Source: Candidatus Babelota bacterium (lineage in GTDB: Bacteria; Babelota; Babeliae; Babelales; Vermiphilaceae). From it: DNA of 64,000 nucleotides. The position numbers were made by a program, and so were the translations under genes. Under the pieces are notes generated by a model. That model was given only the letters and a program-made list of their open reading frames with translations. It searched no databases and was not told the DNA's origin. Where the stretch lies: positions 32,001 to 96,000 of the forward strand of contig JBMOLF010000007.1 of NCBI GenBank assembly GCA_049325595.1. The letters run 5' to 3'. Shown one piece after another: positions 6,778-40,016 of the stretch. Every line of letters begins with the position of its first letter. The first letter of the stretch is position 1.

Positions 6778-8166
6778 ATGAAGATAAAATTTTTATTGTG
6801 CTCATTAATGTTTGCAATAGGCTCTTACGCCTATGCAAGCGAATCTGCTGAAAAAGAGCAAGAAATGCGTTCATATGTTCAAAAATCAAAAAGTTATCGC
6901 GGGGCAGTTGCTGGTTTAAAGGCTGCCGGTATTGAGTTAAATACTAAAGAAGAAACCTTTTTATTTTTAAATGAATTGCACAAAAGATTCCCTTATGTTG
7001 GTAAAAAAGTATTGGTTAAGTTACTAAGTAATAATAAATTTGCTCAAGAATGGTTACAAATAGAACCTGAAAAGCCAGTTGTCGAGCAAAAAATTATTGG
7101 CCAAACACCTGAAGAAAAAATAACTTCTCTCGTGTCACAATCACTCAACATAGGAACGGCCTTAAATTTATTTAAAGAGTTAGGATACGACAAAAATCAA
7201 GAACTTATTAAAATTTTTTTTAATAAATTAAATGAAAAGTTTCCTGAACAAGAAGTTCGTATTGCACGATCAATAAAATCAGATGCTTCTCGAGAATGGT
7301 TAAAGCAAATAAAACCAGCTGTTATTTATGATTATATCCCAAGATCAGGCTATGAAGAACTCCTGGAATTGTATGAGCAAGCGTATGGCGATTACTCTAA
7401 AATAGAAGAATGGCTCTCGCGTGGATTTGATCCCAACATAATTTTGCAAGAATCATTAAGTTTGGTAGATCCAGAATTATTAAAATTAGCAGTTTATTAT
7501 GGCGCAGATATAAATAGAATTGCTTACCCAGTTCCTGAAGTTGTCGCTATGTATGGGCATGTAAGTTCTCCCCTGTCTCGGTTAAAGCTCATAAATAAGC
7601 AAGTATCAGATCCTATGCGTGGAGGAACAGATCCTGATTTTCTAGAACGATTACAAAAAATGATTCGCTTTTTAGAGCAAGAAGGGGCCGTTGCAAAAAA
7701 CACGAGAACCGAAGAAATAATTCCATTTTTTACTTTAACGCCAAAAATGCTAACTGCATTAGAACAATATGATATTATCACAGCCGATGAAAATAGAGAT
7801 AACCGTCTGCGTGAATATCTAAAAGCAGGAAATGATGTTAATGCTTTATTTTTTATCGCTTTGCAACGCGACGATTTAGCATTATTTGATTTTGCTCTTA
7901 AAAATGGCGCCCATGTAAACTTGTCGGTGATGAACGATGAAGAAAGTTCACTTCCTTCTAGTATTACACCCTTAACTTATTTGCTGCAAAAGAAGTTCTT
8001 TTATGAAAATGAACCAGAAAAATATAATGCAACTCAACAAGCTATTATAAATATTAATGAAATGATACGACAATTGCGCGAAAAAGGAGGAACCATTACA
8101 TCGCTTAGAAGAAATCCTAATTATATTACCTCCTTATATTATGCCGATTATCAACTATACGAATAA
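6778..8166 (+). CDS. Exported ankyrin protein with duplicated family domain (array member 7)
   Basis: Signal peptide; two copies of the family motif (FLNELHKRFP...QEWL and FFNKLNEKFPEQEVRIARSI...EWL); two ankyrin modules. Confidence 0.78.
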   Translation: MKIKFLLCSLMFAIGSYAYASESAEKEQEMRSYVQKSKSYRGAVAGLKAAGIELNTKEETFLFLNELHKRFPYVGKKVLVKLLSNNKFAQEWLQIEPEKPVVEQKIIGQTPEEKITSLVSQSLNIGTALNLFKELGYDKNQELIKIFFNKLNEKFPEQEVRIARSIKSDASREWLKQIKPAVIYDYIPRSGYEELLELYEQAYGDYSKIEEWLSRGFDPNIILQESLSLVDPELLKLAVYYGADINRIAYPVPEVVAMYGHVSSPLSRLKLINKQVSDPMRGGTDPDFLERLQKMIRFLEQEGAVAKNTRTEEIIPFFTLTPKMLTALEQYDIITADENRDNRLREYLKAGNDVNALFFIALQRDDLALFDFALKNGAHVNLSVMNDEESSLPSSITPLTYLLQKKFFYENEPEKYNATQQAIININEMIRQLREKGGTITSLRRNPNYITSLYYADYQLYE

Positions 8167-31676: not shown

Positions 31677-33359
31677 TTGATGATTGATCAAGATCAAAAA
31701 CAACCTTTGACTCCCATACAGGAAGATACCACAACTGAGGTTGGACAAAAGGAAGTTGCCGAAAAAGAACAAACTACTCCGGCAGATTTATCTGAAATTA
31801 AAGTTGAGAATCAAATAGAAAATGAAACTCAACCACAAACAACTCCCCCAATGCGTAGTCAAGGCCGTTCAACTCGTAGTGGACATCGCACTGAACGTAG
31901 ATATCATCAAAAAAATACTGATGTTATTCAAAAAGCAGAGCCAGTAAGACCATCCGAATCAAAAGGTTTAGAAAGAGCGTATGATGAACAACCGCCATCT
32001 GAAGGGCGTCTAGAAGCGCGTAGACCTGAGCAACGCTATTACGATAATCAACGTGAGCGTGCTAAAGAATATCGTGCTCCGCAGCAACCATTAGCTATAG
32101 AAGAACTCTCATTAATGGAGTTAAATTCATATGCGAGAAAGTTAGGAATTATTGGCGCTGCCTTAATGACCAAGCAAAAATTAATCGAGCGTATTAAATA
32201 TGTTGAAGCTCATCCAGAGATGGAACTTGAGGTTGAAGGGGTTTTAGAAAAACTACCTGATGGATTTGGTTTTTTACGTTCTGCTCAATATGATTATGTT
32301 TCGGGTCCCGATGATGTTTATGTTTCGCCATCGCAAATTAGACGTTTTAATTTACGTACGGGCGACACTATTTCTGGGGTGATTCGTAAACCAAAAGAAG
32401 GTGAAAAATATTTTGCATTGCTCAAAGTTAATAAAGTTAATTTTGAAGAGCCATCAACTACCGCAGATCGCCCGAGTTTTGATCGCTTAACGCCTTTACA
32501 TCCAAATAAAAAATTTAATTTAGAGTTTGATCCAACCATAATTTCTACCCGAATTATGGATTTGTTTACCCCAATTGGTAAAGGTCAACGAGCTCTTATC
32601 GTTGCACCCCCAAAAGTTGGTAAAACGATGCTTTTAAAAGAAATAGCGCAAGCTCTTATTGCCAACCATCCTGAATCACATTTGATTGTTTTACCAATTG
32701 ATGAACGTCCAGAAGAAGTTGCTGATATGAAGCGTACGGTGCGCGGTACTCCTGCTGAAGTTATTAGTTCGACCTTTGATGAGTCTGCAGAGCGCCATGT
32801 ACAGGTTGCTGAAATTGTGCTTGAAAAAGCAAAACGCATGGTTGAGTCTGGCAAAGATGTCGTAATTCTTCTAGATTCTATCACTCGTCTTGCGCGTGCT
32901 TATAATACGGTAGCTCCTGCTTCAGGTAAGGTTTTAACTGGTGGGATCGATGCAAATGCTTTGCAAAGACCAAAACGATTCTTTGGTGCAGCGCGTAATA
33001 CCGAAGAGGGTGGATCACTTACTATTATTGCCACCGCGTTAATTGATACCGGTTCTCGTATGGATGAAGTAATCTATGAAGAATTTAAGGGTACTGGTAA
33101 CCTTGAAATGCACATGACTCGTAAGTTATCTAACCGTCGTATTTACCCAGCATTTGATTTACTCATGTCTGGCACACGTCGTGAAGATCTCTTGCTTTCT
33201 GAAGAAGATCTTAACAAAGTATGGATTCTACAGAAATTCTTAGCGACTATGAGCACTATCGAAGGTATGGAGTTCTTGATTGATAAGATGAAGAAAACCA
33301 AAACAAATCGTGAATTCATAGAAAGCATAAATAAGAAAACGGTTCCTACTGCTTCTTAA
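31677..33359 (+). CDS. rho: Transcription termination factor Rho with long N-terminal extension
   Basis: [67 protein letters not shown]. Confidence 0.97.
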
Positions 33360-36298: not shown

Positions 36299-36403
36299 GA
36301 AGCCTCTTATCGGTCGGTTTTTTGCAATAGCCAAATAGATAACTATAGATTAGAATATATAAAAAAATGGTTTTTTCAAAAAACCTAACTAAATGAACAA
36401 AAA

Positions 36404-36865
36404 ATGAAAATAATTGCCCAAAATAAAAAAGCTTTTCACGATTATCATATTCTCAATACTATCGAAGCAGGAATTGTGCTTACTGGTGATGAGGTAAAAT
36501 CGTTACGGTTAGGCCATGTTGCCTTAGTAGGTTCTTTTGCAACAGTGCATCAGGGGGAGCTCTACTTAATTAATTGTAAAATTACTCCTTATGCTAAAGC
36601 ATACCAGGTAAAAGATGAGCAGGCTTCAACACGTAGTCGCAAACTGTTGTTGCACAAACGTGAACTTACCAAACTTATTGGAGATATTGCCAAAAAAGGA
36701 ATTACGATTGTTCCTTTAAAACTATATTTTAATAATAAGAATTTGGTTAAAGTTGAACTTGGCATTGCAAAGCACAAAAAAACTACCGATAAAAAATCTG
36801 AACTTAAAGAACGCGATATTAAGCGCGAAACATCGCGTGAATTGCGCGGGAAAATAAGATTTTAA
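36404..36865 (+). CDS. smpB: SsrA-binding protein SmpB
   Basis: IAQNKKAFHDY, EAGIVLTGDEVKSLR, RKLLLHKRE, VPLKLYF. Confidence 0.97.
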   Translation: MKIIAQNKKAFHDYHILNTIEAGIVLTGDEVKSLRLGHVALVGSFATVHQGELYLINCKITPYAKAYQVKDEQASTRSRKLLLHKRELTKLIGDIAKKGITIVPLKLYFNNKNLVKVELGIAKHKKTTDKKSELKERDIKRETSRELRGKIRF

Positions 36866-36935
36866 TAGATTTCTCATGTTTAGTCAGAAATAATTGAATT
36901 ATTAATCGAATTAATGGTTAAAACAGCTCGATTTA

Positions 36936-36964
36936 TTGACTGATATACCAATTGAAAGTAATCT
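36936..36964 (+). promoter_or_regulatory. Putative promoter for tmRNA
   Basis: TTGACT-N17-TAATCT ending about 25 bp upstream of the mature 5' end. Confidence 0.45.
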
Positions 36965-36988
36965 TATTTATAAGTATTTGAAATGTAT

Positions 36989-37358
36989 GGGGGCGTAATT
37001 GGCTTCGACGTGTTATTGTTGGCTTTAAGAGCATGCCGAGCGTTGGCTAAGTGCTCGTAAAACAATTGGTCAAAAAGAAATGCAAACGCATTTGAATCTG
37101 CTCCAGCTTTTGCGTAAGTAAAACTGGCTAGCAACTTGTTAACTGGGCGTGTCTATCAGTTTGGTTAACACGTATTAGACCAGATAGAACTGATTATGCA
37201 AGATTACATGCTTGTGTAGCATAATTGAGTACACTCAAGCATCTTAGTAGCAATGCTCTGTCTTTGAGGTAGCTACTACGTATATTCAAAGAATAAGCGT
37301 GTAGGGCTTAAGGTCTTTGATAGTGCGGACATGGGTTCGACTCCCATCGCCTCCACCA
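36989..37358 (+). ncRNA. ssrA: Transfer-messenger RNA; tag peptide (A)ANAFESAPAFA* at 37082-37117
   Basis: 5' GGGGGCG...TTCGAC pairs with 3' CGCCTCC-ACCA including the G3:U Ala determinant; T-arm ATGGG-TTCGACT-CCCAT; tag ORF ending AFA-TAA; adjacent to smpB. Confidence 0.96.
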
Positions 37359-37517
37359 TGCTTCGTTCTACGAACTACGCATGGCGCAGCCATAAAATGA
37401 CTTTGATAACGAAGCATGCCCTGCGTAGCTTGCCAAGCCGGTAGGCCTGGATAAGCGTAGCATGGGCCAAATTAATAAACTAAACACAATTAGTTCTTCG
37501 TTCTACGAACTACGCAT
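37356..37517. repeat. Cluster of REP-like palindromes left of the GIY-YIG gene
   Basis: CCATG-CTTCG-ttctacgaa-CTACG-CATGG (37356-37384); inverted partner CCCTG-CGTAG-ctt..aag-CGTAG-CATGG (37419-37465); exact 22-nt recopy CTTCGTTCTACGAACTACGCAT at 37361-37382 and 37496-37517. Confidence 0.8.
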
Positions 37518-37558
37518 AGTCTTAAAATTACACTTCAGAGTTTTTTATTTAAAAATAT

Positions 37559-37801
37559 ATGTATTTTGTATATTTGCTCAAATCAATTAATTTTTCTAAT
37601 CAAACATACATTGGATACACTACCGATATTCAAAATCGTTTGATAACACATAATAATGGTGGGTCGCCACATACAGCTAAATATAAGCCTTGGAAATTAC
37701 ACGCCTATTTTGCATTTGAAGATAAATATGTAGCGCTTAAATTTGAGCAATATTTAAAATCACATGCAGGAAAAGCATTTGCCAATAAAAGGTTATGGTA
37801 A
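37559..37801 (+). CDS. Stand-alone GIY-YIG nuclease (YhbQ/UPF0213-like)
   Basis: YFVYLL, TYIGYT, RLITHN, HTAKYKPW, ALKFEQYLKS. Confidence 0.9.
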   Translation: MYFVYLLKSINFSNQTYIGYTTDIQNRLITHNNGGSPHTAKYKPWKLHAYFAFEDKYVALKFEQYLKSHAGKAFANKRLW

Positions 37802-37824
37802 ACCGCACAAGGCTTCATCTGGTA

Positions 37825-37950
37825 TCCTGCATGTTAAAACTTCGCAGGACAAGAGCCAGCTTCTTTAACGGTATAACTCAAAAATCTGAGAAAATATTTA
37901 ATAGCAAGAAGTGAAGTATGTCCTTCGTAGCTCGCAGAGCATAGTAGGAC
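37825..37950. repeat. Degenerate REP-like palindrome pair right of the GIY-YIG gene
   Basis: TCCTG-catgttaaaa-CTTCG-CAGGA (37825-37849) and GTCCTT-CGTAG-ctcgcagag-CATAG-TAGGAC (37920-37950). Confidence 0.65.
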
Positions 37951-38071
37951 GACAAGTTATCTTTTCAAATGATCAGATAAACTTCTTTTTGTATCTCTGC
38001 AAAGTTGACAGAGTATTCATGTTCTAGCTATGTTTATGGCTATCAATATATCTTTTTAAAAGGAGCTCAAC

Positions 38072-38581
38072 ATGAAAAAAATAATAGTGTTAACAATAGC
38101 TATGATAACTTCGGTGTCATATGTTCGCGCGGAAGTTGAAGGTAAAATAAATAACGTTATAGAACGTTTAACGCCAGCGGTAAATGCACGATCATTAGCA
38201 CGTGATGCTGCTTATATCGCTACCAAATCATGTCCCAATTCAGGATCGGTACAAACACCATTGGGTACCGTAGAATCAGCAGATGTTGCTCGCTATTTAG
38301 TAGCGGTAATTTTACATGCGCAAAATATTAAAGGTGCGGTTGCAACAGTGGCTCAACAAGCGTTAGAAGATTTAGGTATGTTTGGTTTTAATACCGTAAA
38401 TAGTTCGATATCTCAGGCTACTCAGCAAATTAAATTAAATTGTTTATCTAACTTTGTTCGTAAAGTAAATGCACTTTTTGCAAAAGATAGTTTTGGTAAC
38501 TATGTTGTTCGCTGGTTATTGCGAGCAAAAACTCAAGAGTTTGTTAATTCAAGTAATGTAAAATCAGTTAATCGTAAATAA
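38072..38581 (+). CDS. Exported hypothetical protein
   Basis: AAGGAG RBS; signal peptide ending VRA; TTGACA element near 38005. Confidence 0.65.
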   Translation: MKKIIVLTIAMITSVSYVRAEVEGKINNVIERLTPAVNARSLARDAAYIATKSCPNSGSVQTPLGTVESADVARYLVAVILHAQNIKGAVATVAQQALEDLGMFGFNTVNSSISQATQQIKLNCLSNFVRKVNALFAKDSFGNYVVRWLLRAKTQEFVNSSNVKSVNRK

Positions 38582-38600
38582 TTTAATTTTAGAAAATACT

Positions 38601-39197: not shown

Positions 39198-40016
39198 ATG
39201 TTTATTATGAAAAATATAAATAATTTATTTATGGCTGTGTTATTTTTAGCTTGTTATGCTAAAGCCATGGACTATGTTGAAAAGCGCGTTTCTTTTGAAG
39301 AATTTGAGCGTGAATTATGTCCAATTCATTTTTGTGCAGCTAATAATCGTGTTGATTTAATTCAACATTACTTAGACCTAGGTATCGATGTAAACATTAA
39401 TAATAATTCTCCTCAGGTAAGTCCATTAATGCTTGCTACATATTATAATGCAAAAAATGCAGCTAAACTTTTAATAGAACATGGTGCAGATCCATTTCAA
39501 CAAAACATTAAAGGAGTTAGCTCATATCAAGTAGCAACTCGAGAACAAAATAGTGAGCTTCTTGATTTGTTTAATGCATGGCGACAAAAAAATTCTATGG
39601 AATCTACCGAATCGGAGCATGAGCTGGAAGAAACGCTTAATAGAGTGATAGAATCTTTTTGGGCTAATGAAATGCAGTGCGATCAAGAATATTCATCACC
39701 TGAACCATCTACTAACAATAGTAGTATCGATTCACTCGAATATCAGACTCTTTCAAATGAGAATCTTATCCTTGTTAATACTAAGGAAAATTTTATTGAT
39801 TACATAGCCAAACATCCTCATTATCAATCGTTATCAAAAAGAAAAAAGAAAGCTTTGTTAGGAATTGTTAAAACAGAAAAGCAGAAAAAAGTTATTAAGC
39901 CACTAAAGAAAAAACGCAAATATAGATCAATAGATTATTCAGAAGTCAGTATACCTTCTTCGCTGCGACCAAAAAGTGGTCGTGTGCGAAGAAAGCCAGT
40001 TATTTTTGGCGATTAA
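39198..40016 (+). CDS. Exported ankyrin protein with basic C-terminal tail
   Basis: Signal peptide ...AKA then MDY; CPIHFCAA, SPLMLAT, LLIEHGADP; K/R-rich tail. Confidence 0.82.
   Translation: MFIMKNINNLFMAVLFLACYAKAMDYVEKRVSFEEFERELCPIHFCAANNRVDLIQHYLDLGIDVNINNNSPQVSPLMLATYYNAKNAAKLLIEHGADPFQQNIKGVSSYQVATREQNSELLDLFNAWRQKNSMESTESEHELEETLNRVIESFWANEMQCDQEYSSPEPSTNNSSIDSLEYQTLSNENLILVNTKENFIDYIAKHPHYQSLSKRKKKALLGIVKTEKQKKVIKPLKKKRKYRSIDYSEVSIPSSLRPKSGRVRRKPVIFGD

Follow-up and report, generated by a model that had tools for sequence, protein, structure and literature searches.

A REPIN-like cassette with a minimal GIY-YIG nuclease gene, probably mobile, directly after the CCA of the tmRNA gene in a Candidatus Babelota genome

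The DNA analysed here, hereafter the window, is a stretch of 64,000 nucleotides (positions 32,001 to 96,000 of contig JBMOLF010000007.1) from Candidatus Babelota bacterium GCA_049325595.1, whose genome comprises 1.29 Mb in 24 contigs with about 35% G+C. Behind its transfer-messenger RNA (tmRNA) gene stands a compact cassette that consists of a REPIN-like leader, with the elements P1, B, D and P2, and of a promoter-less gene for a GIY-YIG nuclease of 80 amino acids. This is probably one complete copy of an element whose insertion point lies exactly behind the CCA of tRNA and tmRNA genes and which is moved by a nuclease-hairpin mechanism. The architecture of the cassette, its junction at the CCA, the covariation of its stems, its insertion polymorphism, its recent spread and the linkage of the gene family to tRNA ends across phyla are established below, followed by the mechanism that they suggest and by the competing explanations.

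Structure of the cassette behind the tmRNA gene

All features of the cassette are described on the plus strand. The tmRNA gene (ssrA, 36989-37358) was identified with ARAGORN and with Rfam RF00023 (149.7 bits). Its terminal CCA (37356-37358) is at the same time the anchor and the first three bases of hairpin P1 (37356-37384), which reads in full CCATG-CTTCG-TTCTACGAA-CTACG-CATGG and is arranged as CCA-TG, CTTCG, inner hairpin, CTACG and CA-TGG. Folded as DNA, P1 reaches -7.7 kcal/mol (z -5.9), and none of 200 shuffles folds as well. The small hairpin B (ATGGC-GCA-GCCAT, 37381-37393) makes use of the right arm of P1, is also paired when the leader is folded as a whole, and terminates in a second CCA (37390-37392); a similar unit, TGGC-N2-5-GCCA, recurs in relatives. 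An AT-rich stretch separates B from D (AACGAAGCATG, 37408-37418), the remnant of an inverted P1 copy, whose 11 nucleotides are 100% complementary to CATGCTTCGTT (37357-37367). The minimum-energy fold of the whole leader, computed as single-stranded DNA, is the long-range P1-D helix (leader z -3.05). The second palindrome, P2 (37419-37466), lies in inverted orientation, its minus strand fitting the P1 pattern, and shows compensatory changes in 22 leaders from other phyla. P1' (37496-37517) is an exact 22-nt recopy of the P1 core (source 37361-37382) without the CCA-TG start, and a CCA-less second P1 likewise follows P2 at other tRNA loci.

The nuclease gene (37559-37801) encodes a single-domain, Slx1/UPF0213-like protein, residues 1-72 of which are covered by Pfam PF01541 with 54.5 bits (cut-off 22.6, E 1.4e-14). 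No other small GIY-YIG gene exists in the genome; Pfam finds one further match, in a long open frame of at least 443 amino acids that is probably UvrC. Y5, Y17, G19, R27, H31, N32 and E63 are invariant in an alignment of 17 homologues, and the invariant Tyr, Arg and metal-binding Glu are presumably the catalytic residues of the GIY-YIG family. A conserved C-terminal Asn was not found, as no invariant Asn follows E63 in this alignment, which agrees with the Slx1 cluster. In a sequence search of the PDB the best solved relatives are UPF0213 and SLX1 proteins, namely 1zg2 (UPF0213 BH0048, E 6.1e-6) and 7wme (SLX1, 2e-4), together with 1ywl (0.028). Searches with the 80-amino-acid protein returned no family model from NCBIfam, no match from PHROGs and only a 14-bit match (E 0.004) from PADLOC, and these libraries give no hint of a defence system or of phage origin. 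No promoter-like site was found between the tmRNA gene and the nuclease ATG, and a scan of 36850-38120 for a GC-rich hairpin followed directly by a T run returned no terminator-like site, including an intrinsic terminator of the tmRNA gene. Read-through transcription of the nuclease gene from the tmRNA gene is therefore likely. Of the RNA sequencing runs compared by sampled words, none contained more than a fraction of 0.17.

An earlier examination of the window from its letters alone (the sequence-only reading) had described the nuclease gene and the palindromes on its left, and both hold good by sequence, by the Pfam match and by the exact 22-nt recopy. It had also taken the palindromes on the right (37825-37849 and 37920-37950) for one head-to-head pair, which they are not, as they belong to two different modules. 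Module G (37820-37858) consists of the hairpin TCCTGC..GCAGGA (37825-37849) and the end GAGCCA (37853-37858); it is homologous to tRNA-Gln and tRNA-Arg trailers, recurs after tRNA-Gln and two tRNA-Arg genes, and is a hairpin module different from P1. Behind it lie the AT-rich spacer of an older leader of the TA type (37859-37912), common to a second strain known from sequencing run X2, and the D (GAAGTATG) and P2-like palindrome GTCC..GGAC of the same older leader (37913-37950), a 79% direct repeat of 37411-37438. The X2 strain has retained the matching P1 (CCATACTTCG...), and the D-P2 unit is the orphaned distal half of an older leader of this other subtype. Folded alone, the hairpins on the right are weak (z -0.9 and z -1.2), and it is homology, not folding, that establishes module G and the D-P2 unit as real.

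The leaders are compound, being built of tandem modules with nested micro-palindromes of about 30 nt. The latter are nested in some P2 hairpins and absent from others (for example, at window positions 37412 and 37431 in paralogous leader copies); further examples are found at C10:149700-149790 and C23:930-1035 (C numbers denote contigs of this genome). They vary within the genome and in run X2 and look like separate insertion units. The long inner hairpin of an Arg-type P1 (C15:225402-225448) and that of P2 (37432-37458) resemble classical enterobacterial REP sequences in form and partly in their letters, although this may be chance.

The repeat family in the genome

In support of the sequence-only reading, the palindromes are not limited to the tmRNA locus but form a repeat family, which has 13 sites in the genome. 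The strict motif, with five complementary outer pairs, occurs six times genome-wide, and all six copies start at the CCA of a tRNA or tmRNA gene. The P1 unit is found 3' of four other tRNA genes, and the four near copies of its 22-mer core elsewhere in the genome all stand directly 3' of a tRNA CCA. BLAST with ten tRNA-trailer seeds identified 12 sites genome-wide. Ten of them lie on the 3' side of a tRNA or tmRNA gene, another lies to the right of the nuclease gene, and the last is a copy of the tRNA-Gln trailer without a tRNA. The thirteenth site, near the start of contig C17, was found by a motif scan. The genome possesses 38 tRNA genes (Rfam RF00005) and one tmRNA gene, and P1 is present at 10 of these 39, always starting at the CCA. 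At nine tRNA genes the leader alone is found, and these leader-only copies behave like non-autonomous members of the family.

Leader subtypes differ in the two bases that follow the CCA (TG, GT, GC), and both D and the right arm of P1 carry the matching bases. Five leaders of the TG type, each behind a different RNA gene, share 86-99% identity over 76-114 nt, which points to recent spread of the leaders within the genome. An exact search of a genome-contig collection with the TG-type P1 returned no match. A few P1 units (C15:86567-86634 and C17:230-295, and the upstream regions of the related loci L019, L032 and L038) have in front of them, instead of a tRNA, a different conserved segment of about 60 nt with CCA or CTAG at its end, in which Rfam finds no match.

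Alleles in a near-identical strain and a sister species

Run X2, which belongs to a different study, contains a near-identical strain, with 0-1 differences over flanks of 965 and 615 nt. One of its contigs follows 36401-37365 with a single difference and then continues as CCAAGGCTTCGTATGGCAGG, a short P1 of the TA type with B. A second contig starts TACTTCGCCAAGGCTTCGTATGGCAG and runs from the same P1-B directly into 37855, covering 37855-37956 with seven differences and 37986-38600 with none. The X2 strain thus appears to carry a 27-nt P1-B module in place of about 497 nt (37359-37855) that include the nuclease gene. The segment that differs comprises the TG-type leader, P1', the nuclease gene and, as its right end, module G, and both alleles end in CCA before the common GCTTCTTTAACGG. 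The gene-less allele is deduced from contigs that run on across the junctions; the missing X2 cover over 37510-37805 was not used as evidence alone. Runs X3 and X6 yielded only short pieces of low depth. Just downstream of the older D-P2 unit, 493 other letters replace the 29 bases 37957-37985 in X2, and this segment showed no match to the nuclease gene at 85% likeness.

The sister species carries a degenerate P1 after its tmRNA gene, followed by the same next gene, and the nuclease gene is missing at this site. The variable region ends at the promoter-like site of that gene (38005-38034; TTGACA, 18 nt, TATGTT; gene 38072-38581), identified by a promoter scan, and both the TTGACA box and the gene are kept in the sister species. 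With the X2 strain and the sister species, a presence/absence polymorphism of the nuclease gene at the tmRNA locus is found between close relatives. Six of ten orthologous loci are empty in the sister species (tRNA-Ser(tga), tRNA-Ser(cga), tRNA-Ser(gct), tRNA-Arg(acg), tRNA-Gln(ttg) and tRNA-Arg(cct)), three have other or degenerate hairpins, and tRNA-Ala(GGC) has a full cassette of another subtype. At tRNA-Gln the comparison reveals an exact insert of 65 nt that starts after the CCA and ends in GAGCCA, with the orthologous hairpin behind it.

Related genomes and other phyla

The comparison within the order covered 41 related genomes. A looser P1 pattern gave 335 matches in these genomes, against 17 for the same pattern read backwards, which, like the strict motif, places the palindromes beyond chance. 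In three genomes with all tRNAs mapped, 20 of 30, 10 of 13 and 8 of 10 P1 matches begin immediately behind the last base of the tRNA model. Members of the nuclease family occur in 27 of the 41 genomes, with zero to five matches each, and 14 of the 68 matches contain internal stops. A tRNA or tmRNA gene, belonging to many different tRNAs, lies 70-435 nt upstream on the same strand at 19 of 30 related nuclease loci, or at 18 of 27 if the locus of the window and two loci of other GIY-YIG types are set aside. P1 counts follow nuclease copy numbers (Spearman 0.65, which overstates the link because the genomes are kin and not independent), with a median of 11 in genomes with the gene against 1 in those without. 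One relative possesses two paralogous cassettes, at tRNA-Ala and tRNA-Ser, which align from the CCA onwards but only as far as about 8 nt behind the stop codon; to judge from this alignment, leader and gene were copied together between the two tRNA genes.

A profile of the 17 homologues found at least 577 related loci in a species-representative genome collection, among them loci in Bradyrhizobium, Rhizobium, Verrucomicrobiota, Ignavibacteria and others. ARAGORN, applied to the first 60 of 80 loci, placed a tRNA or tmRNA gene on the same strand upstream of the nuclease gene in 48 of them. tRNA-Ala(GGC) is the host at 17 loci, tRNA-Leu at 8, tmRNA at 7, tRNA-Ala(CGC) at 4 and others at 12, and the gap between the tRNA and the ATG ranges from 94 to 407 nt with a median of 127. 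Best identities in other phyla (63-65%) equal or exceed that in the sister species (59%), and the gene family shows, on these identity values alone, signs of horizontal transfer. In five large GC-rich genomes the P1 pattern is not enriched (37 matches against 51 for the backwards control); in Bradyrhizobium three or four true P1 per genome were recognised by eye.

The leader has the same architecture in these distant loci. In GC-rich genomes it consists of P1, a GCA loop and an inverted P1, followed by P2, that is, of an inverted doublet and a third inverted unit. In the AT-rich Dependentiae, including the window, the left part of the inverted P1 copy has decayed and D alone remains. D, taken as nine bases (CA-NN-pentamer) with at most one mismatch, is present in 55 of 66 leaders against 0.25 in a control that used the D targets of leaders with other NN; the two bases after the CCA take 11 different values across leaders and are matched in D in the same proportion (55/66). 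For the helices of P1 and P2 in 22 leaders, 95.1% of cells are paired and 9 of 19 pairs have changed on both sides. None of 500 shuffles reaches the covariation score, the paired percentage or the count of both-sided changes, and slid controls pair in 29-42%. RNAalifold recovers only the local helices of these 22 leaders, since the long-range P1-D helix is misaligned there; this helix was counted by a separate script. A wobble count with a crude pairing rule, intended to tell RNA from DNA helices, gave 17 G-T and 8 A-C, which is not decisive.

These comparisons uphold two further proposals of the sequence-only reading, namely that small GIY-YIG homologues are associated with the palindrome and that the system is linked to tRNA and tmRNA 3' ends (10 of 13 palindrome sites in the genome, together with the 18 of 27 related loci and the 48 of 60 loci from other phyla given above). 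Its description of a REPIN-like system without a RAYT fares less uniformly. The REPIN analogy fits the form of the leader, because the GC-rich relatives have a true inverted doublet, but the genome does encode Y1 transposases, with two intact IS200-like genes and fragments.

Other mobile elements and neighbouring genes

The two IS200-like elements (C15:98549-99007 and, on the minus strand, C19 about 6950-7410) are near-identical, encode a Y1 transposase of 152 amino acids and possess their own end hairpins; the fragments are located on C9 and C17. These end hairpins are unrelated to the palindromes of the cassette, which do not track the IS200-like Y1 transposases. Large serine recombinase genes are found at C10:282496-283984, C7:6889-8419 and C10:99704-101173, one of them split. 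Their 3' ends run into the opposite-strand 3' ends of tRNA-Asp, tRNA-Glu and tRNA-Arg(tct), and they appear to be elements of a further type directed at tRNA ends, unrelated to the cassette. A short recombinase gene remnant follows a P1-B unit at C17:290-480. Further downstream in the window, an ankyrin-repeat gene (Pfam Ank_2) and several open reading frames (ORFs) without family match occupy 39198-40016, which is ordinary for such genomes.

Proposed mechanism and alternative explanations

In the mechanism proposed here, the nuclease gene would be transcribed by read-through from the promoter of the tmRNA or tRNA gene, and its product would recognise hairpins with the conserved mismatched CTTCG/CTWCG internal loop in single-stranded DNA, a state that may be favoured at the end of a heavily transcribed tRNA gene. 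It would nick beside the hairpins, by analogy with the GIY-YIG nucleases of the Ssn family at their own hairpin repeats, and repair or copying would then install the leader, or the leader and the gene, directly after the CCA. Since each module ends in its own hairpin and CCA, the target would be recreated and modules would accumulate in tandem. We infer all four of the steps involved, that is, the activity of the nuclease on hairpins, the single-stranded state, the read-through transcription and the copying.

Several points weigh against a cassette moved by its own nuclease. GIY-YIG enzymes are hydrolytic and cannot join DNA, so that the exact junctions at the CCA need a repair or copying route, and the role of the nuclease in moving the hairpins is deduced from sequence. 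Hairpins at tRNA ends are also present in four relatives in which Pfam finds only a GIY-YIG ORF of UvrC size (426-430 amino acids): G034 (99% complete), G008 and G007 have 6-10 P1 each and G004 has one, and in G034 eight of ten P1 abut tRNAs and some leaders are full. The gene is therefore not indispensable for the repeats to persist or to arise. Only overlapping loose ends of about 20 letters join the two X2 contigs, and the "empty" allele keeps both the P1-B module and the full older leader, so that the difference between the strains is a module-for-module replacement and not a clean insertion. In Bradyrhizobium and Rhizobium the gene stands at tRNA-Ala(GGC) in 10 of 11 loci, with three or four true P1 per genome; with one main host gene and few P1, the cassette looks stable there rather than actively mobile. 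Finally, the structure used in the covariation test of the 22 leaders was derived from the same sequences.

Three other explanations have been considered. The leader might be mainly RNA, a structured 3' trailer of the tRNA or tmRNA that controls processing, termination or read-through and doubles as the 5' untranslated region of the nuclease mRNA, with the pairing of the CCA to the right arm of P1 or to D acting as a switch. In its favour, the stretch from the tmRNA gene to the ATG shows no promoter-like site, which makes co-transcription likely; the left arm of P1 can pair with either of two partners that exclude each other, and both covary; B and a T-rich run follow P1 in AT-rich relatives, and the inner loops are often TTCG. 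Such a role does not conflict with a mobile cassette, and the two could hold together. As a full account it is nevertheless unlikely, for the sister species lacks the element at six of ten orthologous tRNA sites, which argues against a conserved processing signal, and no terminator-like site was found at the locus. The P2 motif lies on the opposite strand and would hence be a different RNA motif, and the leader matches no family in Rfam. With 2 one-sided changes against 34 two-sided cells, G-U intermediates are rare, a pattern more in keeping with DNA hairpins or recent copying than with an RNA helix of long standing.

In a second proposal, the nuclease is a domesticated, structure-specific, Slx1-like housekeeping enzyme that clears hairpins, cruciforms or R-loop damage from highly transcribed tRNA genes, and the palindromes are its substrates, or hazards, rather than passengers. 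Its closest solved relatives, the UPF0213 and SLX1 proteins, its conserved catalytic residues and the long-lived residence of the gene at tRNA-Ala(GGC) in Bradyrhizobium, Tardiphaga and Rhizobium would suit such an enzyme. We regard it as improbable, somewhat more so than the RNA trailer, in view of a patchy gene distribution in close relatives (0-5 copies, with pseudogenes), of different tRNA genes in different genomes, of the absence of the gene at the locus in the near-identical strain, of the joint copying of leader and gene between two tRNA genes and of identities across phyla as high as within the genus. It is less probable still that another enzyme, an IS200-like Y1 transposase or the large serine recombinases, mobilises the palindromes and that the GIY-YIG gene is a mere passenger of a hot spot. 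Candidate enzymes are at hand, in the form of two intact IS200-like genes and fragments and of three large serine recombinase genes that abut tRNA-Asp, tRNA-Glu and tRNA-Arg(tct); the P1-B unit of C17 stands directly before the recombinase gene remnant and 1.9 kb from a Y1 fragment, and some genomes that lack a small GIY-YIG gene have kept hairpins. Against this, the IS200-like elements end in hairpins unrelated to P1 in sequence and in architecture, neither intact Y1 gene is flanked by palindromes of the P1 family, the recombinase sites at the three tRNAs are without P1, and leader and GIY-YIG gene co-occur across phyla in one fixed order.

The cassette moved by a nuclease-hairpin mechanism is accordingly the explanation preferred here. 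It may even represent a new class of site-specific mobile DNA, a tentative proposal that we would not put at even odds: a minimal hydrolytic GIY-YIG nuclease and a REPIN-like leader would insert after the CCA of tRNA and tmRNA genes and rebuild their target, probably on single-stranded DNA at heavily transcribed tRNA ends, in Dependentiae, Alphaproteobacteria, Verrucomicrobiota and other phyla alike, and bacterial Slx1-like proteins would have a first defined role. Minimal proteins of this kind have been without a defined role since they were catalogued in 2006, and a partnership with the leader at tRNA ends is a testable one. Junctions exactly after the CCA, in modules that end in a new CCA, represent an unusual precision of targeting; if this precision reflects the specificity of cleavage, the enzymes could extend the set of single-stranded DNA tools proposed for Ssn nucleases. 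The cassette also explains the GC-rich palindromic clutter found after tRNA genes in AT-rich Dependentiae genomes, which can break assemblies and mislead annotation. Experiments are feasible, as cultured strains of Bradyrhizobium and Rhizobium carry the same cassette.

Comparison with known systems

In full-text literature searches no publication was found that connects small GIY-YIG genes with tRNA 3' ends or with repeats of the REPIN type, nor one that describes a GIY-YIG/hairpin system anchored at tRNA ends. Among published systems the Ssn family (SsnA with NTS/SRM repeats; Chenal et al., Nat Commun 2025, PMC11893778) comes closest. Its GIY-YIG nucleases cut single-stranded DNA beside gene-flanking hairpin repeats; its authors liken it to IS200/IS605 and REP and describe nuclease and repeat as apparently co-evolving. 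The description of the window's system as poorly documented, made in the sequence-only reading, is therefore weakened by this publication and stands insofar as Ssn is probably a different clade and the word "tRNA" occurs 0 times in the main text of that paper, to which the comparison applies. In both cases a small single-domain GIY-YIG protein is encoded by a gene flanked by hairpin repeats of 20-50 nt that recur in the genome (PMC11893778), here P1, P2 and P1' upstream and module G and the D-P2 unit downstream. Unlike the Ssn proteins, which fall in clade cd10448 (PMC11893778), the 80-amino-acid protein best matches UPF0213 and SLX1, and the repeats of the window differ from Ssn repeats in being compound palindromes with the CCA of tRNA and tmRNA genes as their anchor. 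A search of the whole genome with the published degenerate SRM pattern gave no match. The relative G021 carries a 93-amino-acid gene of the Ssn type (L039, around 1400-1800) flanked by repeats near the published NTS consensus, and both kinds of nuclease-hairpin system thus occur in the order. The identity of its protein to the 80-amino-acid protein (35% over 68 amino acids) and a C-terminal extension absent from the latter point away from membership of the 80-amino-acid protein in the Ssn clade.

Phage T4 SegB (PMC2330249) is likewise a GIY-YIG gene beside tRNA genes with presence/absence polymorphism in close relatives. It belongs, however, to the homing-endonuclease lineage, which the 2006 survey of the superfamily (PMC1564403) sets apart from the Slx1-like lineage in its classification. 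In contrast to Seg-like enzymes, the protein of the window is a bare Slx1-like domain that fills residues 1-72 of 80 and leaves no separate DNA-binding domain, and in contrast to SegB the cassette has a palindromic leader, gene-less copies and a junction at the CCA, outside the tRNA. The prokaryotic stand-alone Slx1-like/UPF0213 proteins (Dunin-Horkawicz et al. 2006, PMC1564403) share with it the minimal GIY-YIG domain and the lack of a conserved C-terminal Asn. That survey regards the group as repair-type proteins inherited for the most part vertically, and it reports no link with tRNA genes or repeats.

With IS200/IS605 elements the cassette shares imperfect hairpins as end signals, insertion 3' of a short fixed sequence and probably a single-stranded DNA substrate, but it lacks a Y1 transposase, and the hairpins of the IS200-like elements in this genome are unrelated. 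From REPIN-RAYT systems, as these are generally described, the cassette differs in several respects. The enzyme of the window is a GIY-YIG nuclease, not a Y1/HUH transposase, and no Y1 gene is flanked by the palindromes; the cassette family numbers 10-36 copies per genome rather than hundreds; 10 of the 13 sites in this genome, and most mapped copies, abut tRNA or tmRNA 3' ends instead of being dispersed over extragenic DNA, and the gene family, unlike RAYT genes, shows signs of horizontal transfer. Both systems combine short palindromes in inverted doublets with many gene-less, non-autonomous copies that have spread within the genome and with a single-copy nuclease gene flanked by the repeats.

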